Shown here: one piece after another, positions 19,686 to 56,666 of the stretch
Layout: each line of letters starts with the position of its first letter
How positions within the stretch are numbered: position 1 is the first letter of the stretch
Source: an uncultured Candidatus Sumerlaeota bacterium
GTDB taxonomy: Bacteria > Sumerlaeota > Sumerlaeia > MVZB01 > JAJFLK01
Direction: 5' to 3'
NCBI GenBank assembly: GCA_964598765.1
Contig: CAZRCZ010000008.1
Location: 79,934 to 143,933, forward strand
DNA length: 64,000 nt
The notes under the pieces: model-generated
What the model saw: only the letters and a program-made list of their open reading frames with translations
Told to the model about the DNA's origin: nothing
Database searches by the model: none
Translations under genes and position numbers: made by a program

Positions 19686-22600
19686 ATGAGGCTGAAGGGA
19701 AAAACCAAACTTGCCGGAATGTGCCTTATTCTTCTGGCGAACGCCGCGCTTTGCCAGACCGGAACTTGGACCCCTCTGACGAACCCCGCGCCGGGCTGGG
19801 TTTGGCTGATGCTCCTGCTTCCCGACGGGACCGTCATGGCCGCGACGTATAACGGCAGTCCCGGCAATGCGTGGTATCGCCTGTCGCCGGACACCCAAGG
19901 CCATTACGTCAACGGCGTTTGGAGCGCGCTGGCTCCGATGACCGACACGCGCATTTATTATTCTTCCGACGTTTTAAGGGACGGCAGAGTTTTCGTCGCC
20001 GGAGGGGAGAACGGCACGGGGGGAGCCAAAGCGGAGGTTTATGATCCGCAGACCAACGTCTGGACTCCGATTGTCATCCCGCCGAACTTGATCACGGGTT
20101 CCGGTTTCGTGGACTCGGAATCCAAAATCCTGTCCAACGGCAACGTGCTGGTGGCTCCGGTCTATCCCTATATTTTCGGCGGGACCGTCATTTTCAATCC
20201 CGTCACCAATACCTTGTCGGCGGGACCGACGCTGTATCGCGGCGGGAACCAAGCCGAGGCGAATTGGGTCAAGCTCCCCGACGAAAGCATTTTGACCATT
20301 GATCCGGGGAGCACGACTTCGGAGCGTTACATTCCCTCGCTGAACAGCTGGGTGGACGACGGAGTCGTTCCGGTGGATATCCATGATCCCTTTATATCCG
20401 AATTGGGAGGGCCGCTTCTATTACCCAACGGCAAAGCGTTCTTCATTGGCGGGAGCGGACACACCGCCCTTTATACCCCTTCGGGGACCAGCAGTCCGGG
20501 CGCTTGGGCGACCGGACCCGACCTACCCAACGGCCAAGGGATGGCCGACGCGGCGGCGGCCATGATGGTCAACGGGAAGGCTTTATGCGCCGTGTCGGCG
20601 GTTCCCACCGCCAGCGACAACTTTACCTCCCCCACCAGCTTTTATGAGTATGACTATTCCGTCGGAGCCGCGGGGTCGTTCACTCGGACGGGGAGCCCTA
20701 CTGGGGGGCTTACCGACAACGTCCAAGCCTACTTCGGGATGATGCTCGATCTGCCCGACGGCAACGTGCTCTTCGCCCAGATTGACAGCCAGCTTTATGT
20801 TTATCAGCCGGTCGGTTCCCCGTTGGCTTCATGGAAGCCGACCATCAGCGCCGTCACCCCCAACGGCGACGGCTCGTATCACTTGACCGGGACTCAATTG
20901 AACGGCATATCCGAGGGGTCCTCCTATGGCGACGACGCGCAGATGGACAGCAATTATCCTCTCGTGCGGTTCACGGACGGATCGGGCAAGGTTTCGTATG
21001 GACGGACGTATAATTGGAGTTCGACCGGAGTGACGACCGGAAGTGCGGTCGTGAGCACGGAGTTCAGGCTGCCGGCGTCTTTGGCGGGGGGATCGTATTT
21101 GCTCGAGGTGGTCGCCAATGGGATAGGCTCGGATGCGACCACCTTTGTCAATCCCGCACCCACCCCAACGCCGACAAAGACAGTTTCGCCGTCCCCCACG
21201 CGGACCGCGACCGGAACCCCTTCGCCGACACGCACGGCGACCGGGACAGTTTCACCCTCCCGCACGCGGACCGCAACCGGAACTCCCTCGCCCACTCGCA
21301 CGGCTACCGGAACAATCACGCCGTCCCGTACATTCACGCCGTCCCCTACGCGGAGCGCCACCACAACTCCTTCGCCTACCCGTTCGCCGACGACGACCCC
21401 AACCCGTAGCCCCACCGGCACCCCCACTGGCACGGCAAGCCCTTTGCCGACGGTGCCGCCCCCGGGATTCGCGGGGGGACCGCTGGATGTACCGGTACAG
21501 GAGGCGGGGGATTGGTGGCAGTATGACCGGACGTTCATTTTGGGAATACCCACCAGCCAAAGGCTGAGTTGGATCAACGTGATGACGCTCCAAATCAATG
21601 AACGATTTACGAAGACGGTGGATACCACGACGCCGATACCGGCGGGCGTTTACAATTCGCTGGGGGGACCGTTCAAGGTTTATCTCCGCAACCGCTCCAA
21701 CACCACGGCAACGGGCACGGGTTTAATCGCGACAAATGTTCCCGGATACAACGTTCGGGCGGCATTGAACTTGACGTCTCTGAGCACAACAGCCGGCCTC
21801 GATTGGCGACAGGTTTCGGATATGGCCGAGGTTCGGGAAAGCTTCAACCTCTCCGGGACGATACGATCGAATATGACGGCTGATGATGGATGCATCAACG
21901 TCAATCCCGTTCCCAATCCTTTCAACAACCGATTTCTTCTGAATTACACGATGGAGTACAACCGGCCTCTGGAGTATGCCGATTTTCCGCTGGACACGGC
22001 CAATCAGCCGCCGGGAGAAAATTGGCAGAGCCGTCCGCTCCGCAGGGTGTTCGGAACAATCCATCTGGAAATGCCGACCTTGGGACTCGCCACGATTACC
22101 AGCATCCCGGCGACAACGATTGATCTTCCCTTTGATTCCTCGCAGGGCTTCACGTTCACGCATGTTTTCACGAACACGGTTTCGACGGGGCGGGGACCGT
22201 GGGACAATTCCCGCCGAATCGTCAACGCCGCCTCGGCGAAGAACGCCTACTACAACGCCACGGCGCACGAGTTCATAGATTTGGCGCAGGCCGACGTCAC
22301 GGCGAACAATTCGGCCGGAAGTCTGGCGGCAACGTTCAACGGTTGGGACACGTTGGTCACCGGCAGTGTGATCGGGAACGATTACAGCGTCGCGGCCAAC
22401 GCCGACGTCGGGGACCTCGCGATCAATCCGGCATGGCCGCATTGGGGGCAACTCTTCACGATCAGCGGATCGTCCGATTTGGGGACGCAGATGACGGCGG
22501 AAATCACGGACACCGGCACGAGCGCCACCGACGCGATCAGCGGCGGACTTTTCAACCTCGTCCTGCGCGCCCCGTCGGCCAATGATTCCAGTCCGATGGG

Positions 22601-25600
22601 GCCGATCAACACCGATTGGGGATCGTATGGGATCGAGCTGACGCGCAATACCGTGGGACCGACCGGACAACGCAAATATGCGACGGTCCGGTTGGGAACG
22701 CCGCTGGTGGCGCTGAGCGCGACGAGTCAAACGGTCACCGAAGGCATGGACCCCAACGCCGCAATCGCGATTCGCTTGATTGACATGCAGGGGAATCCGG
22801 TGACGGCGAGTTGGAACATGGATGTCACGGTGAATTACGCGACGAGCAATGGTACAGCCGTCCGGCCCGGAGATTACACTAGCGTTTCAGGGACGGCGAC
22901 GATCGGAGCCTATCAAGGCTCGACGAACGTTTTGGTTCCGATCATTGACGATGGCTTGACCGAACCAACGGAATTTTTTCTGTTCACGATTTCGTCTCCG
23001 AACGCGAATGCGATCTTGGGCAACGTTTCGCCGGTCAACGCGCCGGTGGTGGAGACGGTCTTCATCTTTGATCACGGAACCGGTCCGACGCGGACGGCGA
23101 CCCTTTCTCCGACGCGATCCGCCACGCCGACCCCAACGCGGACCATTACGATATCGCCTACCCGCACGAGCACGCCGTCCCCCACGCGAACGGGCACACC
23201 CACCAAGACGCGCACGGCGACGGTGACGGGGAGCGGAACGATCACCCCCTCGCCGACGCGCACGGCGACGGATTCGCCCACGGCCACGCCAACCCCAACC
23301 TGCCCCCCCAATTCCCTATTGGCTACGTTAAACAATCCTGCCCCGGCGCCTAGTGATAACTTCGGAATCTCGGTCGCGATTTCCGGAAATCTAGCGATCG
23401 TTGGCTCTTGGGATGCGGATCCCGGCGGGGTAACGGATGCCGGGAGCGCCTACGTGTTTGACGCGACGGCGGGCGGGTTGGTCTCGACGCTCAATGAATC
23501 CGCGCCGGCAACGAGCGATTGGTTTGGCTATTCGGTTGCCATCTCCGGCAACTTAGCCGTGGTTGGAGCGATTGGAGACGACCCCGGCGCCGTGAGTTGC
23601 GCGGGGACGGCCTATGTCTTCAACGCGGCAACCGGCGCATCGGTGACGACGCTGAACAATCCCGCTCCGGCGGCAAATGATTCTTTCGGCGCCTCGGTCG
23701 CGATTTCCGGCAACTTGGCCGTCGTGGGTACGCCTTACGATGACCCCGGCGGGGTAACTGACGCCGGAACGGCTTACGTTTTCAACGCGACGAGCGGCGC
23801 GTTAGTGGCGACCCTGAATAAGCCTACGCCCACGGTGGGTGATGAATTCGGCTGGGCTGTCGGAATCTCGGGCAATCTTGCCGTTGTGGGGGCGCGATGG
23901 GACGACCCCGGCGGTGTTAGCAACGCGGGAGCCGCCTACGTCTTTAACGCCGCGACCGGCGCATTGGTGGCGACGTTGAGCAATCCCACGCCCACCGCCG
24001 ACGATCTCTTCGGCGCGTCGGTGGCGATCTCCGGCAATCTGGCCGTTGTAGGCGCGCCTCAGGACGACCCCGGCGGAGTAAGCGGTGCGGGAACGGCCTA
24101 CGTTTTTGACGCCACGACCGGAGCGATGATTGCAACGCTGAGCAATCCCGCGCCCGCAATGAGCGACTTCTTCGGAAGGTCGGTTGCGATTTCGGGTAAC
24201 AATGCGTTGGTGGGAGCGGATGGGGACGACCCGGGAGGGATGACTAACGCCGGAACCGCCTATGTCTTTGATGCCACGACCGGCGCGCTCGCGGCAACGT
24301 TGAATAATCCCGCGCCGACGGCGGGGGATCAATTTGGCTGGACGGTCGGGATTTCCGGAACCGTGGCTGTGATCGGCGCACTATATGACGACCCCGGCGG
24401 GGTGACCGACGCGGGGAGCGCCTATGCATTCACATGCGCCTCATTGGTTCCAACGGTAACCCCGACTCGCACAACAACGCCGACCCAGACGCGCACCGCC
24501 AGTCTCACGCCAACTCGGACCTTCACCTTGTCTCCCACTCGCTCGGCGACGCGGACCACGACGCGGACCTCAACGCCGTCGCCCACGCCAACGGCAACGC
24601 CGAGTCTGACCCCCAGTCCTACCCCATGCATCCCCGGAGCCTTCACCGACCGCGCCAACGCCGATCTTCCCGTCGCCGGAACCGTGACGGGGGATTACAC
24701 CGGCACGCTTTCGAGCGACAACGGCTATGAATCCATCGCCGAGGTTTACACCGGCGGCTATTGGCAATTGACGCACAAGTGGACCCTCCCGATCACCGCA
24801 GGATCCAACGTCCACACCTTTTCGGTGGAGGCGTTTCACACGACCAACCCGAGCGGACAGGATGATTTCATCTTCAGTTACTCGACCGACGACGTCGCTT
24901 ACACGGCGATGCTGACGGTGACCAAGACGGCGGACGACAACACGCCGCAGACGTTCGCGCTTCCGGCGTCGCTTCCCTCGACGCTTTACATCCGGGTCGT
25001 GGATTCTCTGGCGAGCGACACCAACAGCAACGCCAACCGGAAGACGACGATCAGCGTGGACGACATGTTTGTCGCCTCGACGATCGTTTGCCCCACGCCC
25101 ACCCCGACCGGCACGCTGACGCCGTCTCCGAGCCGCACTTCCACGCCGACGGCGACACGAACGGCGTCGTTGACCCCGACGGCAAGTCGCACGGCGACCT
25201 CCTCGGCAACGCGAACGGCCTCCTTAACCCCCACACCCACGCGCACGGGAAGTGGGACGGCAACGCGTTCCGCGACGCCAACCGGCACACGGACGGCAAC
25301 CTTGACGGCGACTCCAACCCGAACCGCGACGCTTTCGGCCTCGCGCACCGCAACTTTCTCCCCAACCCGAACCGCGACGCTCTCCCCGACGCCGACGGCT
25401 TCGGCGACGACAACCCGTTCTTCAACCCGGACACCGACACGGACGGCCACGCTGACGAACACACGGACAGGGACCGTCACATTGACGCCGACCAGAAGTG
25501 CGACGTTGTCCCCTACGCGCACCGGAACCCTCACGGCGACGCGATCCTCGACTCCGACGCCCACGCGGACCGCCAGCGCGACGGGGACGCGAACCGCAAC

Positions 25601-27386
25601 GCCGACGAACACTCGGACGTCGTCCTTGACGGCGACTTCCACGCGGACGGCAACGTCTTCGCCGACGCGCACGGGGAGCGCGACCGCAAGCCGGTCCTCA
25701 ACACGGACGGCGACCCGGACCGGAACCGTGACCAGCACACGGACGGCATCCTTGACTCCGACGCGAAGCTCGACGGCGACTCCCACGCGAACCGCCTCCT
25801 TGACGGCGACAAGGTCCTCGACACCGACTTCCACGCGCACGGCTACCGTCAGCGGTTCCGGCACGATCACGCCGAGTCCAACGCGCTCATCCACGCGAAC
25901 GCCGACCCGCACCGCGACGCTTTCGCCGACGCGCACCGGAACACTCAGTCCGACGCGGAGCGCGACGTTCTCCCCCACCCGGACGTCGTCCTTGACGCCA
26001 ACCCCATCCCGGACCGCGACGTTCTCTCCCACGCGCACGGGCAGTGTGACCGCAAGCCGTTCAGCGACACGGACGCCGACGCGGACCGGAACACTGACAA
26101 GCACACGGACGGCGACTACGACATCAACGCGAAGCGCAACCTTGTCCCCGACGCGCACCGGAACGCTCACGGCGACGCGGTCAGCATCGTTGACGCCAAC
26201 TCCCACGCGCACCGCAACGCTCAGTCCGACGCGAACCGCGACGGTTTCGGGAAGCGGAACGATTACCCCCAGTCCGACGCGATCGGCAACCGTGACGCCG
26301 AGCGGGACCCTCACGCCCTCTCCCACGCGGACGGGAAGCGCAACGGCAACACGGACCGCAACCTTGTCTCCCACTCGAACGTCCACAAAGTCCGCAACGT
26401 CCACCGCGTCCGCCAGCCCCACCCGATCCTCAACCCGAACTTCGACCCGCACGGCCAGCAAGTCTCCGACGCGCACGGCGACCCTTTCGCGCACCCGAAC
26501 GGCGACCAAGTCGCCGACCCGCTCCTCCACGCGCACGCCGACGCGCACCGCGACGCTCTCGCCCACGCGGACGGCCACCTTGACGCCGACCCCATGCGTC
26601 CCCGGAACTTTCACCGACCGCGCCAACGCCGATCTGCCCGTCACCGGAACCGTGACGGGGAACTACACCAACACGCTTTCCAGCGACAACGGCTACGAGA
26701 CGATCGCCGAGGTCTATACCGGCGGCTACTGGCAGTTGAAGCACAAGTGGACGATCCCGATCACGCCGGGTTCGGACGTTCACACCTTCTCGGTCGAGGC
26801 GTTCCACGGGACGAACACGAACGGTCAGGATGATTTCATTTTCAGTTATTCGACCGACAACGTGACGTTCAGCAACATGCTGACGGTGACGAAAACGGCG
26901 GACAACAACGGGGTGCAGACGTTCGCGCTTCCGGCGTCGTTGCCGTCGGTCATTTATATTCGTGTCGCGGATTCATTGACGTTTGACACCAATCCCAGTC
27001 CGGATCGGGCCACGACAATCAACGTGGATGATATGTTTATCACTTCGACGATCACCTGCGGCACGACGCCGACGCCAACCCCGACGCGCACGGCGACTGC
27101 CACGGCGACGCGGACCGCGACACGGACGAACACAAGAACCGCGACGCAGAGCGCGACGCCGACAAGAACCGCCTCAAAGTCCGCGACATTCACCGCGTCC
27201 ACCACGTCCACGCCAACCCGCTCGGCCTCGTCCACCGCAACCCGCACCGGAACGCGCACCCCCAGCCCGACCCCCAGCGCGACACAAACGCCGATCCCCT
27301 CGCCAACCCCAACCGCAACGCCTTCCCCAACCCAATCCGCCACCCCCACACCCAACTCCGCGCGAAATTGGGAAATTTACGAGTAA
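19686..27386 (+). CDS. Giant secreted surface protein (2566 aa): Kelch/galactose-oxidase-like propeller, Calx-beta domain, 8 FG-GAP repeats, duplicated ~150-aa module, extensive Thr/Pro-rich [ST]PTRTAT linkers; C-terminal tail NSARNWEIYE
   Basis: The signal peptide is MRLKGKTKLAGMCLILLANAALCQ. The Calx-beta domain reads YATSNGTAVRPGDYTSVSGTATIGAYQGSTNVLVPIIDDGLTEPTEFF. The eight FG-GAP repeats span ~23300-24420. The duplicated module lies at ~24630-25090 and ~26590-27070. Confidence 0.7.
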   Translation: MRLKGKTKLAGMCLILLANAALCQTGTWTPLTNPAPGWVWLMLLLPDGTVMAATYNGSPGNAWYRLSPDTQGHYVNGVWSALAPMTDTRIYYSSDVLRDGRVFVAGGENGTGGAKAEVYDPQTNVWTPIVIPPNLITGSGFVDSESKILSNGNVLVAPVYPYIFGGTVIFNPVTNTLSAGPTLYRGGNQAEANWVKLPDESILTIDPGSTTSERYIPSLNSWVDDGVVPVDIHDPFISELGGPLLLPNGKAFFIGGSGHTALYTPSGTSSPGAWATGPDLPNGQGMADAAAAMMVNGKALCAVSAVPTASDNFTSPTSFYEYDYSVGAAGSFTRTGSPTGGLTDNVQAYFGMMLDLPDGNVLFAQIDSQLYVYQPVGSPLASWKPTISAVTPNGDGSYHLTGTQLNGISEGSSYGDDAQMDSNYPLVRFTDGSGKVSYGRTYNWSSTGVTTGSAVVSTEFRLPASLAGGSYLLEVVANGIGSDATTFVNPAPTPTPTKTVSPSPTRTATGTPSPTRTATGTVSPSRTRTATGTPSPTRTATGTITPSRTFTPSPTRSATTTPSPTRSPTTTPTRSPTGTPTGTASPLPTVPPPGFAGGPLDVPVQEAGDWWQYDRTFILGIPTSQRLSWINVMTLQINERFTKTVDTTTPIPAGVYNSLGGPFKVYLRNRSNTTATGTGLIATNVPGYNVRAALNLTSLSTTAGLDWRQVSDMAEVRESFNLSGTIRSNMTADDGCINVNPVPNPFNNRFLLNYTMEYNRPLEYADFPLDTANQPPGENWQSRPLRRVFGTIHLEMPTLGLATITSIPATTIDLPFDSSQGFTFTHVFTNTVSTGRGPWDNSRRIVNAASAKNAYYNATAHEFIDLAQADVTANNSAGSLAATFNGWDTLVTGSVIGNDYSVAANADVGDLAINPAWPHWGQLFTISGSSDLGTQMTAEITDTGTSATDAISGGLFNLVLRAPSANDSSPMGPINTDWGSYGIELTRNTVGPTGQRKYATVRLGTPLVALSATSQTVTEGMDPNAAIAIRLIDMQGNPVTASWNMDVTVNYATSNGTAVRPGDYTSVSGTATIGAYQGSTNVLVPIIDDGLTEPTEFFLFTISSPNANAILGNVSPVNAPVVETVFIFDHGTGPTRTATLSPTRSATPTPTRTITISPTRTSTPSPTRTGTPTKTRTATVTGSGTITPSPTRTATDSPTATPTPTCPPNSLLATLNNPAPAPSDNFGISVAISGNLAIVGSWDADPGGVTDAGSAYVFDATAGGLVSTLNESAPATSDWFGYSVAISGNLAVVGAIGDDPGAVSCAGTAYVFNAATGASVTTLNNPAPAANDSFGASVAISGNLAVVGTPYDDPGGVTDAGTAYVFNATSGALVATLNKPTPTVGDEFGWAVGISGNLAVVGARWDDPGGVSNAGAAYVFNAATGALVATLSNPTPTADDLFGASVAISGNLAVVGAPQDDPGGVSGAGTAYVFDATTGAMIATLSNPAPAMSDFFGRSVAISGNNALVGADGDDPGGMTNAGTAYVFDATTGALAATLNNPAPTAGDQFGWTVGISGTVAVIGALYDDPGGVTDAGSAYAFTCASLVPTVTPTRTTTPTQTRTASLTPTRTFTLSPTRSATRTTTRTSTPSPTPTATPSLTPSPTPCIPGAFTDRANADLPVAGTVTGDYTGTLSSDNGYESIAEVYTGGYWQLTHKWTLPITAGSNVHTFSVEAFHTTNPSGQDDFIFSYSTDDVAYTAMLTVTKTADDNTPQTFALPASLPSTLYIRVVDSLASDTNSNANRKTTISVDDMFVASTIVCPTPTPTGTLTPSPSRTSTPTATRTASLTPTASRTATSSATRTASLTPTPTRTGSGTATRSATPTGTRTATLTATPTRTATLSASRTATFSPTRTATLSPTPTASATTTRSSTRTPTRTATLTNTRTGTVTLTPTRSATLSPTRTGTLTATRSSTPTPTRTASATGTRTATPTNTRTSSLTATSTRTATSSPTRTGSATASRSSTRTATRTGTVTSTRTASLTPTRSSTATPTRTASLTATRSSTPTSTRTATVSGSGTITPSPTRSSTRTPTRTATLSPTRTGTLSPTRSATFSPTRTSSLTPTPSRTATFSPTRTGSVTASRSATRTPTRTGTLTSTRTATTTSTRSATLSPTRTGTLTATRSASLTPTPTRTATLSPTRTATVSGSGTITPSPTRSATVTPSGTLTPSPTRTGSATATRTATLSPTRTSTKSATSTASASPTRSSTRTSTRTASKSPTRTATLSRTRTATKSPTRSSTRTPTRTATLSPTRTATLTPTPCVPGTFTDRANADLPVTGTVTGNYTNTLSSDNGYETIAEVYTGGYWQLKHKWTIPITPGSDVHTFSVEAFHGTNTNGQDDFIFSYSTDNVTFSNMLTVTKTADNNGVQTFALPASLPSVIYIRVADSLTFDTNPSPDRATTINVDDMFITSTITCGTTPTPTPTRTATATATRTATRTNTRTATQSATPTRTASKSATFTASTTSTPTRSASSTATRTGTRTPSPTPSATQTPIPSPTPTATPSPTQSATPTPNSARNWEIYE
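25080..26590 (+). repeat. In-frame DNA tandem repeats (18-24-nt units, ACGCGCAC[GC]GCGACG-like) encoding [ST]PTRT[AG]T linker
   Basis: Degenerate units repeat about 70 times. Shorter tracts lie at 21160-21440, 23090-23300, 24440-24620 and 27060-27345. Confidence 0.8.
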
Positions 27387-28483: not shown

Positions 28484-28818
28484 CCGACGGATTGTTCACG
28501 GCTCCTCGCGGGGTCGTCAACGTATTTTTCAAAGTGATACCTTTTGAGCACTTTGTGTGACTTGACCATGCCCTTGGAACGGTCCCGTCTTTTTTCAAAG
28601 CAACGGATGGGGATGAAATAGCTTGATAACTCATGGTAATTCAGTCATCTAAGGCTGTTGATTTCACCTTGGCAATTCCGTATGAAGCTTGGCCTGAATT
28701 TGGCTCAACCCAACCGCAGGATTAGATTTTACGCTTTAATCCGGGTGATAAGTTTTTTATGCTTGAGAAAAATTTCACGAATTGGTATGGAAGAGGCGGT
28801 CGCGGCGGTTTTCACGCC

Positions 28819-29751
28819 ATGAAGTCCACGCTGTTTTCCAGTTCCACCCCCGGCCATGTTCCAACGATTCGTCGTGCCTTCCAAACTTCCTTTGCTTCGT
28901 CAATCTGCGCGGTGTTGCTCGCTTCTTGTTCTTTATTTTCGCCGTCCGCTTGGAAATCCGCGAAGGACAAAGAGCCGGAACCCGCCGATCAACTCCTGCT
29001 TCGGGCCACGCTGGATAAAAGCGCCTATCGTCCGGGCGAGGCCATCCTGATGCGCGTCTCCCTGACCAACACGACGCCACAATCGCTCAGCATCAAGAAA
29101 CTCAACGCCAAGTCCCTGACGTTCTGGTTCGGCGACGTGAGGGAAGGACGGCGCTTTGAGCGCAACGCGGTCGTGAGTAAATTGGAAGAGAAATCCATCA
29201 ACGAAGCTGGAACCGAAGTTGACGAGCTCAAGCCGGGAGAATCGTGGGAGCGTCAATTTCTGCTGACGCGTCTGACGGCGGAGGATGGCGATTACGTCGC
29301 GCAGGTCCACATGATTCCGTACGCGGACGCCGACTCCTCGGGAACGAGCAAAATTTTCAGCAACGCGCCCCGGTATCAAGTTTACGGAGATCGTCTGTTC
29401 GAGCGGGACAACGGCGGATTGCTTCAACGGAAGGACGCCGTCAAAATCGCTTCGGCGGATCTTCAAGCCGGTTCGCCCCTGTCCGATGCTCTGTTGGTCG
29501 AAGATGAGAAGGTTGGGTTTTTGGTCTGGTGGATCAATCTCACTTACAAGAATCCGCAAGGGGAGCAAGTTCAGACAGGCTATCTTGTGGATCCCTATTG
29601 GGGAAAAATCCGGTCGCGGGTCAAACCGTTCGATCCGAAGATGAAGGCCGAATCGGATTCCGCCGGACAACGCCCTCCGGCAAGATTGTTCCCCAAGACG
29701 AATTTTTCCAATCCCAACGCGGGAGAATCTAAGGAAGGGAAAAGAAATTGA
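28819..29751 (+). CDS. Hypothetical lipoprotein
   Basis: The start is reassigned to the internal Met (MKSTLFSS...). The lipobox is LLASCS. The gene lies immediately upstream of the secretin genes. Confidence 0.5.
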   Translation: MKSTLFSSSTPGHVPTIRRAFQTSFASSICAVLLASCSLFSPSAWKSAKDKEPEPADQLLLRATLDKSAYRPGEAILMRVSLTNTTPQSLSIKKLNAKSLTFWFGDVREGRRFERNAVVSKLEEKSINEAGTEVDELKPGESWERQFLLTRLTAEDGDYVAQVHMIPYADADSSGTSKIFSNAPRYQVYGDRLFERDNGGLLQRKDAVKIASADLQAGSPLSDALLVEDEKVGFLVWWINLTYKNPQGEQVQTGYLVDPYWGKIRSRVKPFDPKMKAESDSAGQRPPARLFPKTNFSNPNAGESKEGKRN

Positions 29752-31708: not shown

Positions 31709-33475
31709 ATGAAATCCAAAAAACACACGCGAATCGCCGGACTGGCGCTACTGAGCGGGCTTTTGGCCTCTCCGTTGGCGTTCGGTCAGGCGCAGTCGCT
31801 GATCTCCATTCCTCCGGTCAACGGCGACAACGGGGGACTGATTAACCAGAACAACTCACCGACGGTCTTTGTGGGACCTCAACCCTCGACCGACGAGAGC
31901 CACATCAACGACTACACCAATCAGAACGACCAGATGAATCTTGACGCCAACGCGGGCAATGTTCGCGTCCTGCGGACCAGCCAGAAGGCGTTGCTGAACG
32001 ATTTCGTCACCGCCCTGATTGAGGTAAAGGACGTGGACGTGCGGGAAATCCGCAACGCCATCCGGACCATTTGCGGTTTGGAAGGCGGACGCGCCGAAGT
32101 CGTGATCCACTACATCGTGGACAAGGATGGAAAGCCGGTTCCAGACAAGGACGGCAAGCCGCAGATCGAGAAAAAGTTCGTGCAGGTCATCTGCCCGAAG
32201 TTTCAACTTCCGTATCTGCAAAAGGCCATTGCCGCCTTGGACAAAGCGTGGGTCGGCGAGGAAAACACCGGATCGGTGACGTTCTACTACAAGGCGAAGA
32301 ACCGGAACGCGGCGGGCATTGACTTCATTGCTTCGCACTACGCCTCGGAAACCTCGGCCACCGGAGCTTTCACCGTGATTGACACCACCAACAACGCCGT
32401 CACGCGGCTGGAGGAAGCCTTCCGCGCGGACAAATACATGGAAGCGGCCAAGCAAATTGACATCCCGGCCAATCAGGTCTCGCTCGACGTCAAGGTCGTG
32501 GAACTCAACTCCAACAACGATCTGAAACTCGGCTTGGATTACATCAATTGGAAGAACGGCCCGGGACGCAGTCTTTGGGAGTTCGTCTCCTCCGGATTGC
32601 TTCACGCCGAAAGCCGGAACAAGACCCTGACCAGCATCTACGACCCCGTGACCTTCGGGTTTGCGGGATCGTCGGGCGCGGCAGTGTTGAAGGCGGAATT
32701 CGAGCAGTCCTATCGCGCCGTGAATTATCTGCTGACCTCCAACTACATTGACTTCCTTCAGGTCAAGGGACAAGCCCGCGTGATGACCCAACAGAGCCTT
32801 CGGGTCAAGAGCGCGAACACGGCGACAATTGCGACCAATGACGTCATCGTCGCCACGACCAGTTCGCCGTCCGATCTGGACACCGTCGGCGCCGATACCC
32901 ATCAAGGCATCTCCGCGACCGACCTTGAAGGAATCCGCGTCTCGAAACCGAGCGAGGAGAGCATCTTCACGGTTCCGGTTCGAGACTATGATCGTCGGCT
33001 TCATCATCGTCCCGCCGGTTCGACGGGTCTCTTCCTTGCGGTCACGCCCTTCGTCGGGCTTGAGTCCATGGAATTGGTCCTCAATATCTCCAATGCCGAC
33101 CTGAACGGCGTGGCTCCCAACGGGCAACCGCTCATCAACAATCGCGAAATTACCACGACGATCCGTTTGATGGACGGCGAGCCTTACGTCATCAGCGGCC
33201 TCAAGCGCAAGCACGACATCCGCGAGACGGGCAAGGTTCCCGGCTTGGGTGACATTCCCATCATCGGCTATCTGGCTGGCGGCGAGAACAATATCCAGCG
33301 CGAGAATGACGTCGTCATCATCGTGACGCCTCATTTCCAACTGGCTTCGCAGGCGGACATCAAGAATCCGCAGGAAGTCAAGGATTTGGCCGAAGCGGTC
33401 GGTGGCGCGCCGAGCAAACTGCCTTCCAACCCCTACGGTTACGATCAATGGTTGCTGGATCCGAACGCGAACTAA
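31709..33475 (+). CDS. Secretin-family outer-membrane channel protein, paralogue 2
   Basis: The signal peptide is MKSKKHTRIAGLALLSGLLASPLAFGQA and the RBS is aaaggag. The C-terminal signature is VPGLGDIPIIGYLAGGENNIQRENDVVIIVTPHF. Confidence 0.7.
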   Translation: MKSKKHTRIAGLALLSGLLASPLAFGQAQSLISIPPVNGDNGGLINQNNSPTVFVGPQPSTDESHINDYTNQNDQMNLDANAGNVRVLRTSQKALLNDFVTALIEVKDVDVREIRNAIRTICGLEGGRAEVVIHYIVDKDGKPVPDKDGKPQIEKKFVQVICPKFQLPYLQKAIAALDKAWVGEENTGSVTFYYKAKNRNAAGIDFIASHYASETSATGAFTVIDTTNNAVTRLEEAFRADKYMEAAKQIDIPANQVSLDVKVVELNSNNDLKLGLDYINWKNGPGRSLWEFVSSGLLHAESRNKTLTSIYDPVTFGFAGSSGAAVLKAEFEQSYRAVNYLLTSNYIDFLQVKGQARVMTQQSLRVKSANTATIATNDVIVATTSSPSDLDTVGADTHQGISATDLEGIRVSKPSEESIFTVPVRDYDRRLHHRPAGSTGLFLAVTPFVGLESMELVLNISNADLNGVAPNGQPLINNREITTTIRLMDGEPYVISGLKRKHDIRETGKVPGLGDIPIIGYLAGGENNIQRENDVVIIVTPHFQLASQADIKNPQEVKDLAEAVGGAPSKLPSNPYGYDQWLLDPNAN

Positions 33476-36445: not shown

Positions 36446-38503
36446 TCAATCCTGATACAAGGCGCGCTCGTTGGGTTTGATTTCAATCGGCAAAAGACGG
36501 GGATAAAAATCCACTCCCGACAGCCCCGCTCCGCCCGTGATTTCAAAGGGAAAAGGAAGGCGGTTCAATTCCCGAAGACCGCGCTTATTGCGGTCGTTCT
36601 CGTCGAGGCAGAATCGAATCCACCTTTGCAATTCGGAGGAATCATCGGACAGAGCGACGGGTTGCTCGATGACCTTATGCTCACCGTTTATTTGAACGCC
36701 ATACCGGAGTTGAACTTTCGCGGGTTGACTCCCCTCGCTCAGAATGGCAATGCCGTATTGTTCGACTTCGCCGTTCCCGCTTTCGCCGTCAAACCATTCT
36801 GTTCTGAGTGAGGTCCCCGGTGGAAGCCGATCACCGAACCAATCACGAAAAGTTTCCCATGAAATACGGATTTCAATTTTGTCGCCGCGGCGTGGATTGC
36901 GTTTCATTTGACGTTCGGCCGTTGCGGATAAGCTCGAATCGGGGACAAGCTCCATGACTTTTTTGAGCCATGCTTCCCTCCTCGGATCGTCCGGCGGGAG
37001 CAATTCGGCTTGCGACAATATGCGCCGCGCCTCGGCGTTGGTCAGGCTCGCGTCTTTTTTTGCGTCCAGAAGATCGAACCTTTTCAGGAGCGCGCGGGAT
37101 TGATCAAATCGTCCTTCCCTTTCATAGACGCGCGCGAGCCGCCTCGCCAAATCGGGTGAATCCGGGTGAGACGGCGCAAGGCGAAGAAATTCCGCCGTCG
37201 CGTCGAGCGGCTCGTCGGCGGGAGGAGGGGGACTGAAGTAGGCTATTCCGCCGCGATAGGCCGTTTCAAAAACGTAAAAGACACCGACGCCCGAAAGCGC
37301 GTTCCACATTTGCGCGAGCCGGGACGAAAGCGTGTAAGCCCGTTCGCGCGTCGTTTCCGGTCCAAGAAAAATGAACCGCGCGAGATCGGCGCGGCGCGAC
37401 GCATGCGCCCGCGCCAGTCTCAACTCCACGTTGTATTGCGGATTCAGAAGAAGCCCGCGAAGCCAATCCGCCTCGTGTTCATTCGCTTCCGATTCGGCAA
37501 GTGTCGAGGCAATGTCGCGCGTGACCTTCACGCGATCCGCATTCTCGCCATTCAAGATGGAAAGCGCGGAGACCAATAACTTTTCTTCGTCGCTCCAATG
37601 CTTCTCATTCGCTCCTTTCTCCAAAGCGTCGGTTTTGGAAGACGACGCCGCGCGCAAGAGATCGGGCGCATTAAGAATTACAGGAGGAGCGCGGTCCGGA
37701 TATCCCACTTGATCCGACGCAACCGATTCGCGCCCGCGTCGCGCGATTTCGCGCTCGGCTTCGAAGCGCGTTGGTTCGGCCTTGCTCCAGTCCGGTTTTC
37801 GCCCCAACGCTCCGCGCGCGTAGAAATTCGCCGAATCGGGATCGTCATGTTTCAACGCCCATTGGGCGCGTTCCAGATCCACGGCGGCCAGAGCGTCGTT
37901 CACGCGGATTTCCAATTTCGCCATTCGGTCTTGATCCCGACGGTCGCTCCGTCCTTCGCGCTCCTGATCTTGCAACGCTTTGTAAAGTCTCCGCTCGGCA
38001 ACGGTGACTTGTTTGGGTCCAAAGACCGCAAAGACAGCGTCCACGCCCAGTTGTCCGGCGGCCTGTATGTTTCCCAACAAAACACGTGTCGCGACATAGG
38101 CAAGCCGATTGAACCCTCCCGCGTAAAATCCGTAGCGTCGGATGAACTGTGCTTGACGGCTTTGAAATTTCGCGTCCGACGCCAAATCCTGAAGCGCAAT
38201 CCGACGCAGGGAATCGGGAATGGGAAGGGCCAGCAACGCCCGCAATGATTCCTCATCGGTGCGGCCGTTGCCGTGAATGGACTCCCGAAGGTAAACGCTC
38301 CAAGGATCGGCGGCGTTGGTTGGTTCTGCTTGTGAAGAAGTCGCGGATGCAGTCGTGGGCCGATCATCGGTGAGCCAACCGCGAATCAAGGCAAGCCGTT
38401 GATCGGTTTCGGCGGCGGAATCTTTCGGAGAGGCAATCAGCACCGCAAAGCAGGATACAAAAAATAACGGAAACGGGAAGATGCTCCGCTTGCGCGGACT
38501 CAT
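36446..38503 (-). CDS. Hypothetical secreted protein (685 aa)
   Basis: The signal peptide is MSPRKRSIFPFPLFFVSCFAVLIASP. The composition is balanced and no family was recognised. Confidence 0.5.
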   Translation of the reverse strand: MSPRKRSIFPFPLFFVSCFAVLIASPKDSAAETDQRLALIRGWLTDDRPTTASATSSQAEPTNAADPWSVYLRESIHGNGRTDEESLRALLALPIPDSLRRIALQDLASDAKFQSRQAQFIRRYGFYAGGFNRLAYVATRVLLGNIQAAGQLGVDAVFAVFGPKQVTVAERRLYKALQDQEREGRSDRRDQDRMAKLEIRVNDALAAVDLERAQWALKHDDPDSANFYARGALGRKPDWSKAEPTRFEAEREIARRGRESVASDQVGYPDRAPPVILNAPDLLRAASSSKTDALEKGANEKHWSDEEKLLVSALSILNGENADRVKVTRDIASTLAESEANEHEADWLRGLLLNPQYNVELRLARAHASRRADLARFIFLGPETTRERAYTLSSRLAQMWNALSGVGVFYVFETAYRGGIAYFSPPPPADEPLDATAEFLRLAPSHPDSPDLARRLARVYEREGRFDQSRALLKRFDLLDAKKDASLTNAEARRILSQAELLPPDDPRREAWLKKVMELVPDSSLSATAERQMKRNPRRGDKIEIRISWETFRDWFGDRLPPGTSLRTEWFDGESGNGEVEQYGIAILSEGSQPAKVQLRYGVQINGEHKVIEQPVALSDDSSELQRWIRFCLDENDRNKRGLRELNRLPFPFEITGGAGLSGVDFYPRLLPIEIKPNERALYQD

Positions 38504-40341
38504 GGTTTGGATGCCGCAGGGGCCTTGGCTTTGCCGCCGCTCGCGGGTTTAGGTTTGGGAACCGGTGTATTTTCGGCGGGCGGTTCTTCACCCTTCGGTT
38601 CTTCGGTGGACGATTCCGCAGGGGCTGTTTCAGTTGCCGGTTTCTTGGCGGGTCGCGGCTTGGCCGAGGACATCGCTTCCGCCGCTTGCTTTTTTCCTTC
38701 TTCCTTAACCTTTTCTTCCTCTTGCATGGCCTCTTCGACGGTCAAAACGCGCAGAACCGAAGTCTCAAACAGTTGCGTTCGATACCGCAGATACCACGCC
38801 AGCGGATTAGTGTGCGTAAACGGCTCCATCATGATGTCGGGCAGAAGCGGAAGCGAAGCGTAAGCGAATGTTTTGACTTCCTTGGCCGGGAATTGGCTGA
38901 TGACTTGCTCCTTGAGGTTCTTCACCTGCGCATACGCCTTCCGGTCCAAGAGAGCGTCTTTCACGCTTTGATATGCGGTCCAGCCACCGGGGCCGGCGAT
39001 CTCTTTGGAGAACGTCGCCGCGCCGTAAAAACTGGAAAGGACAATGTAGTCGCCCCCCTGCGGCGCGCCGAACTCGAAACGCTCAATTTTTCTCCCGCCG
39101 CTCCAGTATTGGAGTTTGGCCGAACCAATCTCGGCGTTGTAGGTCTCGTTGCTGAAAATCCGCGCGTCTTCCGGGACATTCGCCTTGACGAATTTTCCCG
39201 CTTGCTTGAGGTCAATGAACGGATTGCCCTGATAGAACGCCACGAGCGCGGAAAAAATCAAGGCGTGTCCGAGGGTCGGAATGGCCAAGGCAAAAAAACG
39301 TCCGCGATGTTTTTCGCAATGCTTTTCCCAAACCGCCATGCCGTGCCCGGCCAAGATCACGATGAACGGAACCACCGGAAGAAGGTAGCGCGATTGATAG
39401 GCGGAAAAAATTGAGTGCATGATGAGAAGTCCCAGCGTCAGGTAACCCGCCGCGATCACGCTTTGCGCGATTCGCTTCGTGGCGAAGTTGACGCGAAACA
39501 ATCCATAGAGAAAGAAGCCGAAAATTCCGTAGCCGATGAAATAAGGCCCAACCAAGACAAATTGCTCAAAATAATAGAGATAATCCAGCAAGGTTTGACT
39601 CAAACTTGAACTCGTTCGCGCGACCATTTGTGAAACGTGTTTGTTCAACGCGCCGACAAGCCAGACCAACGGCACGGCCCAAGGAATGAGGGTCAACAAA
39701 GGATGAAATTTTGGAGGGGTGGCGAATTCCGCCTTTGTTTTTCCGAACCGCACGATCACCGCGATTATGAGGGGCAGGAGAAGAATTCCCTGATAGCGAG
39801 TCAGCGAAGCCGCGACTCCGGCAAGCGACGCGGCCAACAGCCAGTTCGTTCCCGACTTCGCGTCTCCCTTCGGTTTTTCCTTGGTTTGCTCATAGAGGGC
39901 CGGCCAGATTGCCCGTGCCGCGAGAATTAACGACGCGAGCGACGCCATCCAGAGCGCCATGAAGGTTGCGTCGGTCTGGGGTTGCAAACTCCACCGCAAG
40001 GGAATCGGGCTGATGGTGTAGAGCAACACGGCCATCATCGCCGCGCGCGCGCCGAAGAGCCGCCGCGCCATCGCCTCCAACGGCAGAACGGTCAAGGACC
40101 CCGCGATGATCGAAATCAACCGCGCCGATCCTTCCAAGCCCAACAGTGGAATCCAACCAAGAATATAGGCTAACGCCGTGTAAAGCGGCGGCCAAAACGT
40201 GAGGCCATGCTGGAACGCCGTGATTTGCAGAATCGCATCGGTGTAGGCTCCTTGGCTCACCGGGAGCCAAAGAAGACGCCAGACGAAATTCACGCCGACC
40301 AGCGCCAAGGCGATTTGAACGGGTTTCAGTTGTCGGGCCAA
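38500..40341 (-). CDS. GT-C fold membrane glycosyltransferase (PMT_2/ArnT-like) with Lys/Glu/Pro-rich C-terminal tail
   Basis: The protein has about 11 predicted TM helices. An extracytoplasmic loop holds ARRLFGARAAMMAVLLY. The tail is low-complexity (KEEGKKQAAE...KPKPASGG). Confidence 0.55.
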   Translation of the reverse strand: MARQLKPVQIALALVGVNFVWRLLWLPVSQGAYTDAILQITAFQHGLTFWPPLYTALAYILGWIPLLGLEGSARLISIIAGSLTVLPLEAMARRLFGARAAMMAVLLYTISPIPLRWSLQPQTDATFMALWMASLASLILAARAIWPALYEQTKEKPKGDAKSGTNWLLAASLAGVAASLTRYQGILLLPLIIAVIVRFGKTKAEFATPPKFHPLLTLIPWAVPLVWLVGALNKHVSQMVARTSSSLSQTLLDYLYYFEQFVLVGPYFIGYGIFGFFLYGLFRVNFATKRIAQSVIAAGYLTLGLLIMHSIFSAYQSRYLLPVVPFIVILAGHGMAVWEKHCEKHRGRFFALAIPTLGHALIFSALVAFYQGNPFIDLKQAGKFVKANVPEDARIFSNETYNAEIGSAKLQYWSGGRKIERFEFGAPQGGDYIVLSSFYGAATFSKEIAGPGGWTAYQSVKDALLDRKAYAQVKNLKEQVISQFPAKEVKTFAYASLPLLPDIMMEPFTHTNPLAWYLRYRTQLFETSVLRVLTVEEAMQEEEKVKEEGKKQAAEAMSSAKPRPAKKPATETAPAESSTEEPKGEEPPAENTPVPKPKPASGGKAKAPAASKP

Positions 40342-54491: not shown

Positions 54492-55097
54492 ATGCATAAC
54501 GAGTCCGGCGGCAGAACCACGCGGGGCATTAGGCCGACGCCAATTTTCTTGTTTTTCCTTATCGGGGCGGTCGCGTTTGCCCAAAATTCGAACGGCACCA
54601 ACCTATTGCCGCCTGCGTTGATTGTCTCCGGCGATCTGCCGACCACCGGAGTCTTGTCTCTTGAGCAGATTCAATCGCTCGCATCCATCGAAGTTGAATG
54701 GAGTCATGACAATGAAACCCACCGGGTGATTGGAATTCCATTGGAGAGAATTCTCACGCGATTCGGTTTCGATTCCGGCCCGCACGGCCGCGAGCTTCAA
54801 AACAACGCCGAGCGGCGTAGCGGCTGGCGGAAGGTGATCGTGGCATCGGCGCCGGATGGATTCCAAGCCGTGTTCACCTGCGCCGAAGTGTTCGGGGAAA
54901 TCGGCCCCTCCAAGGTCTTGATAGTCTGGCGGGTGGACGGGAAACCGCTTCCCCCGGACTCCGGTCCTTTGCGGCTAATCGCGCTGTCGGACATGAAGGG
55001 ATCGAGATCCATCCGCCAGCTCCGTCGTCTTGAGATCGTGGATATGCGAAGAATTGTCCCTCCGATGGTTGGGGAATTGCGTCGTGCATCCCCCTAA
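54492..55097 (+). CDS. Oxidoreductase molybdopterin-binding-like domain protein (sulfite-oxidase/MsrP fold-like, lacks conserved Cys)
   Basis: The signal peptide region is IFLFFLIGAVAFA. The C-terminal PLRLIALSDMKGSRSIRQLRRLEIVD resembles the Mo-co oxidoreductase terminus. The start is reassigned to the internal Met. Confidence 0.4.
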   Translation: MHNESGGRTTRGIRPTPIFLFFLIGAVAFAQNSNGTNLLPPALIVSGDLPTTGVLSLEQIQSLASIEVEWSHDNETHRVIGIPLERILTRFGFDSGPHGRELQNNAERRSGWRKVIVASAPDGFQAVFTCAEVFGEIGPSKVLIVWRVDGKPLPPDSGPLRLIALSDMKGSRSIRQLRRLEIVDMRRIVPPMVGELRRASP

Positions 55098-55725
55098 AAA
55101 CGCCGCCTTTTCCCTGATTGAATTGCTCGTCGTGGTCGGAGTCGTCGCCGTTTTGGCGGCCATTGCGGTGCCCAATATGCTCGAGGCCCAAGTCCGCGCC
55201 AAAATATCGCGAGCCAAAGCGGATATGCGAGCCTTGGCGGTCGCCATTGAGAGCTACGGAGTCGATCATGGGGACTATCCGATTGCTTGGGGGCTACAGG
55301 TTGAAGGGCGGGACTCGCTCCAGTCGCTTTCAACTCCCGTTGCTTATATGGCATCGGGGGACGTGGAGGACCCCTTCGCAAAGAGCAACCGTTCCCGTTA
55401 CGAATCGGTCCTCCTGTATGAGGATGTCAACGACGAGGGGCGCATGATCGAATCTCCACCTCAATCCAAATACAGCGCGCCTCCCGATGGCGCGCCGATC
55501 AAATGGTGGTGGATCGCCAGCCGCGGACCGGATCAAGGATTCGGCTTCGGCGCCCCTGTTCAGGATCCCGAGGGGAATCTGTGGAAGAAATTTTACAAAT
55601 GCGACCTCGACCCGGGAGCTTGGCTGACGGTCGTCTATGATCCAACGAATGGAAGCGTGAGTTTGGGCAATATCTATCGCGCGGGCGGGGCGGTTCGAGG
55701 TTTCGCCGGGCAGACCATGCGGTGA
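55085..55725 (+). CDS. Prepilin-type N-terminal cleavage/methylation domain protein (pseudopilin-like)
   Basis: The class III signal and hydrophobic helix read KNAAFSLIELLVVVGVVAVLAAIAVPNMLEAQVRAKISRAKADMRALAVAIESY. The likely start is GTG at 55085. Confidence 0.6.
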
Positions 55726-55760: not shown

Positions 55761-56666
55761 ATGAAATTGAAGAAATTAACCCCAACTTTGTTCATCGTCA
55801 GTCTCGCGTTTTTGGCGCGCCCCTTTGCCGCAACCTTCAGCGGAACGGCCGAAACGGACGACGCGACGGTTTTTTCCGATCAACCGACGGGCAATGCGGG
55901 GGCGGCAACCGAATGTCGCTCCGGGCGTAACGGCACGGGTGCGTATCGAAGATTTCTAATCTGGTTTGATCTTTCCACCATTCCAGCAAATGCAACGGTC
56001 AGTTCCGCCTCGCTCGACCTTACGCTGACCTCCGCGCCAGTGGGCGGTCCCGCTTCGACCAATCAAAAGCTCTGCCTGTTGACCAACTCATGGGTGGAAG
56101 GCACGGGGACCGACCTCAATGGCTTGAATGTCGTCACCGGAGCAGTCTCTTGGAATTCACGCATGGAAGGATCGGTCACTTGGACTTCGGCGGGAGGCGA
56201 TTTCATTACAACCCCGACGGCAACGCTGAGCGTCACCAAATCAATCGGCGGCGTCTATACATGGTCGGGCGCGGGGGTCGCGAACGACGTTCAATCTTGG
56301 ATAGCAACCGGCGGGACAAATAATTTCGGATGGATTCTCATTGGCGATGAGGCCGTCTCCCAAAGTATTCGCGGATACGCAACATCCGAGGCGACCTCCG
56401 GAGTGCCTGTGTTAACAGTCACTTACACGACACCGACGGCTACTCCCACCCCCTCTCCAACCCGATCTCCTACTCCTTCGCCAACGGCAACCATCACTCC
56501 TACTCCTACCGACACCCCGACTTCCACTCCTTCCCCCACAGGAACCCCCACGGCAACCATCACCGATACCACAACACCGACTCCCTCGATGACCCCAACC
56601 CCTTCACCCACCGATACGCCGACTCCCACCCACAATTCCACGCGAAATTGGGATTTGTATGAATAA
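55761..56666 (+). CDS. Secreted protein: globular domain + Thr/Pro-rich linker + C-terminal tail [10 protein letters not shown]
   Basis: The signal peptide is [24 protein letters not shown]. The PT linker runs ~56440-56630. The terminal decapeptide is homologous to the end of the giant protein. Confidence 0.6.

Follow-up and report, generated by a model that had tools for sequence, protein, structure and literature searches.

C-terminal sorting tags bear on how bacteria decide which of their exported proteins remain on the cell surface, and each new tag has so far led to a sorting machine: the tripartite signals LPXTG, PEP-CTERM, GlyGly-CTERM and MYXO-CTERM to sortase, exosortase, rhombosortase and myxosortase, respectively, and the C-terminal domains (CTDs) of the type IX secretion system (T9SS) to PorU/T9SS. 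The T9SS CTDs, comprising type A (Por_Secre_tail, PF18962/TIGR04183), the FlgD_ig-type (PF13860) and type B (CHU_C, PF13585), are folded β-sandwiches of ~70–100 residues. The subject of the present analysis is a far smaller element, a C-terminal tail shared by two genes in a stretch of 64,000 nucleotides (the window; contig CAZRCZ010000008.1, assembly GCA_964598765.1) from an uncultured Candidatus Sumerlaeota bacterium, a member of a widespread phylum represented chiefly by metagenome-assembled genomes (MAGs). The tail is real, non-random and, as far as could be checked, undescribed; the motif to which it belongs occurs at the extreme C-terminus only, shows enrichment in these lineages, and is carried by unrelated exported proteins outside the folded domain. 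It is best classed as a minimal form of the C-terminal sorting-tag concept; since it is much shorter than the known tags and has neither a membrane anchor nor a folded domain, its reader must work differently. The two genes and their ends are as follows.

19686..27386, forward strand: giant-protein gene, 2566 residues, exported (open reading frame (ORF) list, translation and Pfam)
27060..27353, forward strand: final linker of the giant protein, 98 residues (T38 P16 A14 S13), between the last folded domain and the tail
27354..27383, forward strand: giant-protein tail NSARNWEIYE, with the stop codon at 27384..27386; the C-terminal end is PNSARNWEIYE
55761..56666, forward strand: CBM96/DNRLRE gene encoding protein P0001, 301 residues, exported
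56634..56663, forward strand: C-terminal tail of P0001, with the stop codon at 56664..56666

The N-terminus of each protein is signal-peptide-like, basic first and then hydrophobic. In the giant protein the signal peptide is followed by an N-terminal Kelch domain, Calx-beta, seven FG-GAP_2 repeats and many T/P/R-rich linkers (Pfam), and the C-terminal end reads TPTPNSARNWEIYE; P0001, which matches the NCBIfam model NF033679 (DNRLRE) at E=2.3e-18 and whose homologues bear PF24517 (CBM96), consists of a signal peptide, a domain at residues 33–221, a 70-residue T/P linker and the tail. Except for linker and tail, the two are unrelated. The stop codon directly follows the tail in each, with neither a hydrophobic stretch nor a basic cluster beyond the motif. 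An earlier interpretation made from the letters of the window (the sequence-only reading) had placed a common tail at the ends of these two proteins, after long Thr/Pro linkers and with no transmembrane (TM) helix or basic tail behind it; the ORFs and their translations bear out all of this, the linkers measuring 98 (T/P/A/S-rich) and 70 residues. Within the giant gene (21100..27353), a cysteine-bounded domain of ~160 residues, C[IV]PG[AT]FTDRANADLPV…VDDMF[VI][AT]STI[VT]C, occurs twice without a Pfam match; a T/R/S/P-rich, low-complexity linker several hundred residues long lies between its copies.

In the six-frame translation of the window, RNW[DE]xYE is found at two places, which are these two tails, and at no others; a degenerate DNA pattern of the tail gives two matches in the window, against none in 100 dinucleotide-preserving shuffles. 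The 33-nt coding stretches of the two tails are identical at 26 of 33 positions and differ by three synonymous and three conservative codon changes, and among the copies from other genomes the Arg/Ser codon may be CGA, CGC, CGG, AGA, AGC or AGT, all three stop codons are employed, and the flanks are unrelated. Given this variation of codons and stops, conservation is at the protein level and not at the nucleotide level, as had first been claimed; combined with the unrelated flanks, it also rules out a DNA repeat or recent gene conversion as the explanation. Readthrough beyond the tail stop codon was rejected as well, the downstream frames being unrelated between the two window genes.

The sequence-only reading had staked its claim on the presence of the tail on other proteins and on its retention in orthologues, and both were found. 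A genome scan with the degenerate DNA pattern, run on one genome per species, returned at least 105 matches, nearly all of them due to chance (out of frame or internal); among the matches listed, three close an ORF with a stop, namely a purple-acid-phosphatase-like metallophosphatase ending in TPTPTPNRSRNWEVYE (L022) and a CBM96 protein ending in SPSAARNWDLYE (L090), both in MAGs labelled Sumerlaeota, and a secreted 404-residue protein of an unlabelled bacterium ending in SSVSNWDIYE (L007). A stricter pattern applied to metagenome contigs retrieved six contigs and two families, FG-GAP proteins and small low-GC ORFs. The members of the FG-GAP family (L107, L109 and L110; 36% GC, secreted) end in NVKSNWDFYE; six orthologues of the L110 protein (73–89% identity) retain N-W-[DSN]-[LF]-Y-x, and more distant FG-GAP relatives, one of them labelled Sumerlaeia, end in PPSAIRGHWQAYE and PPSAIKQRWQVYE. 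The small ORFs of the other family lie on low-GC (24–29%) groundwater contigs (L108 ~1566..1720, reverse strand; L111 528..665, reverse strand; L112 302..466, forward strand), end in NS[AT]RNWE[LM]YE (the same form as the window tails), measure 45–54 residues where complete, always stand beside HEPN, nucleotidyltransferase or PIN toxin-antitoxin genes, and show no clear signal peptide; their tails may be a coincidence, most of the match having been forced by the search pattern, or may belong to a separate small-protein family.

The tail is likewise kept in the orthologue group of the window CBM96 protein: the closest homologues of its CBM96 domain, some of them labelled Sumerlaeota or Sumerlaeaceae, end in AVGDWTAY, GINDWSSY, AVKEWLEYE, AVNRWSRFE, SVDEWSMY or GVSDWSMY. 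When a CBM96 profile was searched against 1.84 billion cluster representatives (clustered at 50%), 16 of the 146 newly returned among the best 150 were proteins with a signal peptide, a CBM96 domain and a W-tail, with ends such as PPAAVQDWSLY, TPSAVEMWSMY and SSAVRDWMLYR. Carriers also stand side by side, with two to three tails per locus: an ASPIC/FG-GAP_3 protein ending in ASVDDWPLY (L115) and a GSDH protein ending in SAAVDWQFYE (L117) each adjoin a CBM96 gene, and a 336-residue protein ending in ASAHSWELYL accompanies the FG-GAP protein in L109. An NHL-like protein ending in GVTTWFLY was found in L118, where two ORFs of 196 and 90 residues downstream of a pilin gene (2064..3028, reverse strand) seem to be pieces of a single NHL/beta-propeller-type gene, divided by a frameshift or an assembly error, the 90-residue ORF carrying the tail. 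In another set of CBM96 homologues (P0019, P0042, P0059 and P0061), a second unannotated tail without a TM segment, [ST]-W-[GT]-x-[IL]-[KR]-x-[LR]-[YF]-R-COOH (for example STWGSIKALYR), stands in the place of the W-x-x-Y tail.

Altogether, the wider motif is carried by no fewer than 23 exported proteins from unrelated families, comprising the Kelch/FG-GAP giant, CBM96, purple-acid-phosphatase-like metallophosphatase, FG-GAP, ASPIC, GSDH and NHL-like proteins and some unknowns, on contigs labelled Sumerlaeota (L022, L090, P0002, P0005 and P0083 bear this label) and on several unlabelled ones; nearly all of the carriers have signal-peptide-like N-termini. Alignment of 23 non-redundant tails on the Trp, in which W and [YF] are invariant through the selection of the set, gives a consensus of roughly P-[SA]-[SA]-[VA]-x-[ND]-W-x-hydrophobic-[YF]-(E/K/R or end)-COOH. 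The residue at +3 from the Trp is Y or F in 23/23 tails, and the protein ends at this position in nine of them and at +4 in the other 14; the last residue is Y, E, R, K, L or F, with E the commonest (11/23) and F in two. Upstream, -1 is N or D in 12/23 tails, -3 is V or A in 16/23, -4 is S, A or G in 18/23, small residues are likewise preferred at -5, and Pro is the most frequent residue at every position from -6 to -8 (6–7 tails of 23). The general part of the motif is thus only W-x-x-[YF], placed zero or one residue from the C-terminus, plus small residues upstream. R-N-W-x-x-Y-E is invariant in all four tails of the window sub-variant, and the RNW[D/E][I/L]YE tail is one lineage's local version of the wider motif. 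The formula N-x-x-R-N-W-[DE]-[IL]-Y-E given by the sequence-only reading was therefore too narrow, since there is variation at R, at N, at the acidic position and at the last E; the Thr/Pro linker that it described is present in both window proteins but is not a general feature, as in most carriers the tail follows the last domain directly.

The crude rule W..[YF].{0,1}$, applied to greedy ORF sets, is matched by the ends of 24/160 ORFs in the loci of the tail lineage, against 2/682 in loci of unrelated genomes taken from the genome scan; with the index genes removed, the comparison becomes ~9/140 (about 6%) against 2/682 (0.3%), with an odds ratio of 23 and a Fisher p=3.9e-6, figures which are indicative and do not amount to a census, because the loci are small and each was chosen for holding a carrier. 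So short an element lies beyond a profile search of the large protein libraries: in a local hidden Markov model (HMM) built from 19 tails, held-out tails score 6–13 bits, far below what a library of 1.8–5.8 billion sequences demands. The claim that the tail has the form of no known sorting signal withstood comparison with the family databases; indeed, no Pfam or NCBIfam model matches it in the window proteins, and ten isolated tail segments searched against NCBIfam at E<=10 gave only weak matches to the low-complexity linker in two of the ten, the tail itself being unmatched. The Sumerlaeota papers searched do not describe such a tail either. An AlphaFold2 model of the CBM96 protein P0008, computed from a 30-sequence alignment, has a mean predicted local distance difference test score (pLDDT) of 90.4; in it the CBM96 sandwich closes with strand 222–228, and the last block of residues (231–239), which contains the tail, has a mean pLDDT of ~63 and no secondary structure. 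The tail is accordingly predicted, in this model, to be unstructured and to lie outside the CBM96 fold.

We lean towards the reading, which on balance appears somewhat probable, that the tail is a new C-terminal tag of very small size, for sorting or retention, and that a factor of the envelope reads it along with the free carboxylate. Both the sorting or retention function and the manner in which the tail is read are what we infer from its distribution and position; of the proposal that it is a candidate sorting, secretion or attachment signal, the part that stands directly is the occurrence of the wider tail on unrelated Sec-type exported proteins. A carrier would be exported through Sec; the aromatic core and the free C-terminal carboxylate would then most likely be bound by a dedicated envelope component, and this would deliver the carrier to the cell surface or keep it in place there. 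The upstream run of small residues, P-[SA]-[SA]-[VA], resembles a processing site and might serve for cleavage or attachment, and the Thr/Pro linker, where present, might act as a stalk. The fixed distance between aromatic residue and carboxylate, together with the fact that the motif is never internal, suggests that the C-terminus itself is recognised, as with readers of the PDZ, TPR and CAP-Gly types. Among the criteria set out for small C-terminal sorting signals by Haft (bioRxiv 10.1101/2023.06.07.544157), four describe what is seen here, namely location at the C-terminus, several copies per genome (two tails in the 64-kb window, two or three per locus in L109, L115 and L117), signal peptides on the carriers, and carriers that are mutually non-homologous; two that belong to the tripartite signals do not, there being no TM segment after the motif and no basic cluster (the ends are Y, YE, YR, YK and FE).

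Several observations weigh against a dedicated sorting tag. No cognate enzyme or receptor was found in a neighbour survey of the carrier loci, and no gene recurs beside all carriers. The loci that entered the enrichment were picked for one carrier, and genes that adjoin one another there may belong together in function; because the motif is short and degenerate, some secondary matches may be due to chance, and two examples are doubtful, namely L090 4730..6409 (an uncertain ORF in DNA of 68% GC) and a 111-residue ORF in L120. The taxonomic range of the tail is known in part, many contigs being unlabelled. Finally, no orthologue of the giant protein occurs among the best 120 of 3933 Kelch-domain matches; these 120 homologues have other C-terminal ends, and the few with named sources are labelled Planctomycetes or Verrucomicrobia. 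Many of the Kelch homologues (P0184–P0303) possess a conserved C-terminal segment of ~40 residues, SNW…(~27 residues)…FFRLHGH or RFYR[LV]xxx, whose spaced W and [FY]R loosely recall the short W-tails.

The alternative that survives best, although we regard it as doubtful, is that the tail docks its carrier to a pilus or a type II secretion system (T2SS), by binding a pilin-like or pseudopilin protein or a PDZ-type T2SS component, prior to export through a secretin or display on a fibre. It arises from the genes that accompany the two carriers of the window.

55084..55725, forward strand: type IV pilin/pseudopilin-like gene (AFSLIELLVV methylation motif, Pfam N_methyl), directly upstream of the P0001 gene
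29810..31672 and 31709..33475, forward strand: two tandem secretin genes (Pfam Secretin, Secretin_N), the first starting 2.4 kb downstream of the giant, adhesin-like gene

All three genes with a pilin motif in the ~215 kb of tail-lineage loci lie immediately upstream of a tail gene and on the same strand: the window gene with P0001, a gene of L113 with P0002 (a pair orthologous to that of the window), and a gene of L118 with the unrelated NHL-like tail protein. Genes for PilT/T2SSE-type ATPases lie within 5 kb in L113 and L118, and a precedent exists in the short peptide that binds the tip minor pilin of type IVb pili (PMC6048534, PMC9565799, PMC10120004). A link between the pilin gene and the tail is possible, as is, from context only, a part for the secretin genes in a tail system. 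Against this, just two of the three adjacencies are independent, which gives a chance probability of roughly p=0.02 and is suggestive only; most carriers (L022, L090, L115, L116, L117, L120 and L121) have no pilin or secretin gene nearby, and no PDZ protein was seen in the window. The window pilin-like protein has sequence matches in the PDB to pilins and GspG over the N-terminal helix only, and the secretin pair is preceded by an ORF of 330 residues (28759..29751) with a lipoprotein-like N-terminus and no Pfam match. If the link were true, the tail would be a linear recognition signal for a system of the T2SS or type IV pilus (T4P) type, and a C-terminal peptide of 7–12 residues would bring a whole group of enzymes and adhesins to a pilus-like fibre, through which they would be exported or on which they would hang; substrate recognition in T2SS/T4P systems is still poorly understood (PMC10120004).

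An unlikely reading is that the tail sets the maturation or turnover of its carrier, and not its location, by acting as a tag for an envelope protease or quality-control factor of the PDZ-bearing HtrA/Prc/Ctp type. PDZ domains do read such C-terminal aromatic ligands, as with the YxF tails of outer-membrane proteins (OMPs) and DegS, and the fixing of an aromatic residue at or beside the free C-terminus, as well as the P-S-A-V run that looks like a processing site, would agree with this; yet a tag that is present on about 5% of genes, is kept in orthologues and replaces T9SS, PEP-CTERM or dockerin modules fits sorting better, and ligands of Prc or DegS type do not typically end in Glu, Lys or Arg, as the tails often do. 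Slightly less likely still is a peptide acting in cis, independently of any sorting machinery, for example as an aromatic tail that binds sugars or membranes or as an autoinhibitory plug: the stacking of Trp and Tyr on sugars is common and many carriers are carbohydrate-related (CBM96, FG-GAP/ASPIC, GSDH), but the motif is confined to the C-terminal end and never internal, occurs also on the phosphatase and on unknown proteins, is predicted to be unstructured and detached from the domain, and has acidic flanks, which argue against binding to anionic membranes. Chance resemblance, a DNA-level repeat or a recent gene conversion, for which one might cite the partial nucleotide identity of the window tails, the out-of-frame or internal position of most genome matches and the possibly coincidental low-GC small-ORF family, is effectively refuted by the empty shuffles, the varying codons and stops, the unrelated flanks, and the recurrence of the tail on exported proteins with conservation in orthologues.

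Some further genes of these loci may be recorded. Genes for PMT_2 (ArnT/PMT-like) glycosyltransferases occur in the window (38500..40341, reverse strand), adjoining a secreted-protein gene with a weak TPR match (36446..38503), and in L115 (14252..16177); such enzymes could glycosylate the Thr/Pro linkers. The first part of the window (1..8000) is a duplicated cassette, in which TPR proteins encoded at 1396..2829 and 5934..7295 share a C-terminal end in [RK]DRK and the ORFs 2..1399 and 2537..5884 both end in F[ND]PREEA[TN]L[PI]P; an rve_3 integrase gene (8167..9300, reverse strand) lies beside it.

The tail seems to be borne by a considerable fraction of the proteins that Sumerlaeota export, and, returning to the reading as a sorting or retention tag, it would give both a regular-expression handle on the surface proteome of this phylum and a query for phylogenetic profiling of the reader.

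Comparison with described systems delimits the tail from several sides. Type I secretion, whose signal lies in the last ~50 residues of proteins that have no Sec peptide and are usually of the RTX kind, is excluded because the carriers bear Sec signals, and there is no RTX match in the two window proteins. The CofJ and TcpF peptides (PMC6048534, PMC9565799, PMC10120004) are comparable in that a short linear peptide on a Sec-exported protein is encoded next to pilin genes and serves secretin-dependent export or display; these peptides, however, are N-terminal and have no sequence similarity to the tail, and the pilin link here is one of gene adjacency. The β-signal and YxF tails of OMPs, recognised by the β-barrel assembly machinery (BAM) and the DegS PDZ domain, are also short, rich in aromatic residues and located at the C-terminal end itself, and what is recognised probably includes the free carboxylate; the β-signal, however, is the last strand of a β-barrel and ends in Phe or Trp, whereas the present carriers are soluble multidomain proteins ending usually in Y or Y-E/K/R, with a W-tail that follows a disordered linker. 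The β-signal is excluded because the carriers (Kelch, FG-GAP, CBM96, phosphatase) are not β-barrels.

The remaining systems are those whose modules are found in the place of the tail. In the tripartite signals, of which PEP-CTERM takes that place in some homologues, the motif is followed by a hydrophobic TM segment and an Arg cluster; here both are absent and the protein ends zero or one residue past the aromatic residue, and therefore an intramembrane or membrane-anchored mechanism of the sortase type cannot apply as such. In the dockerin-cohesin system a non-catalytic C-terminal docking module likewise follows Pro/Thr-rich linkers, in secreted enzymes and binding proteins, and dockerins stand in place of the tail in some homologues, but a dockerin is a Ca-binding domain of ~60–70 residues (PF00404, a duplicated loop-helix) with no sequence relation to the tail, and Pfam gave no PF00404 match in tail carriers, the model being present in other homologues only. 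The T9SS CTDs differ from the tail in size and form, a folded β-sandwich against ~7–12 residues that are predicted to be unstructured and have no HMM match, and none of the T9SS core genes (SprA/Sov, PorV, PorU, GldK-N) was seen in the 64-kb window; in common with the tail, they occupy the extreme C-terminus of unrelated Sec-exported proteins, often after a linker, occur in many copies per genome, lack a TM segment, and take the same position in CBM96 and FG-GAP homologues. Indeed, the more distant CBM96/FG-GAP homologues end in T9SS CTDs (PF18962, PF13860, PF13585), in PEP-CTERM (PF07589) or TM-plus-Arg anchors, in dockerins (PF00404), or in nothing, and the tail therefore occupies the position of interchangeable surface-sorting modules.

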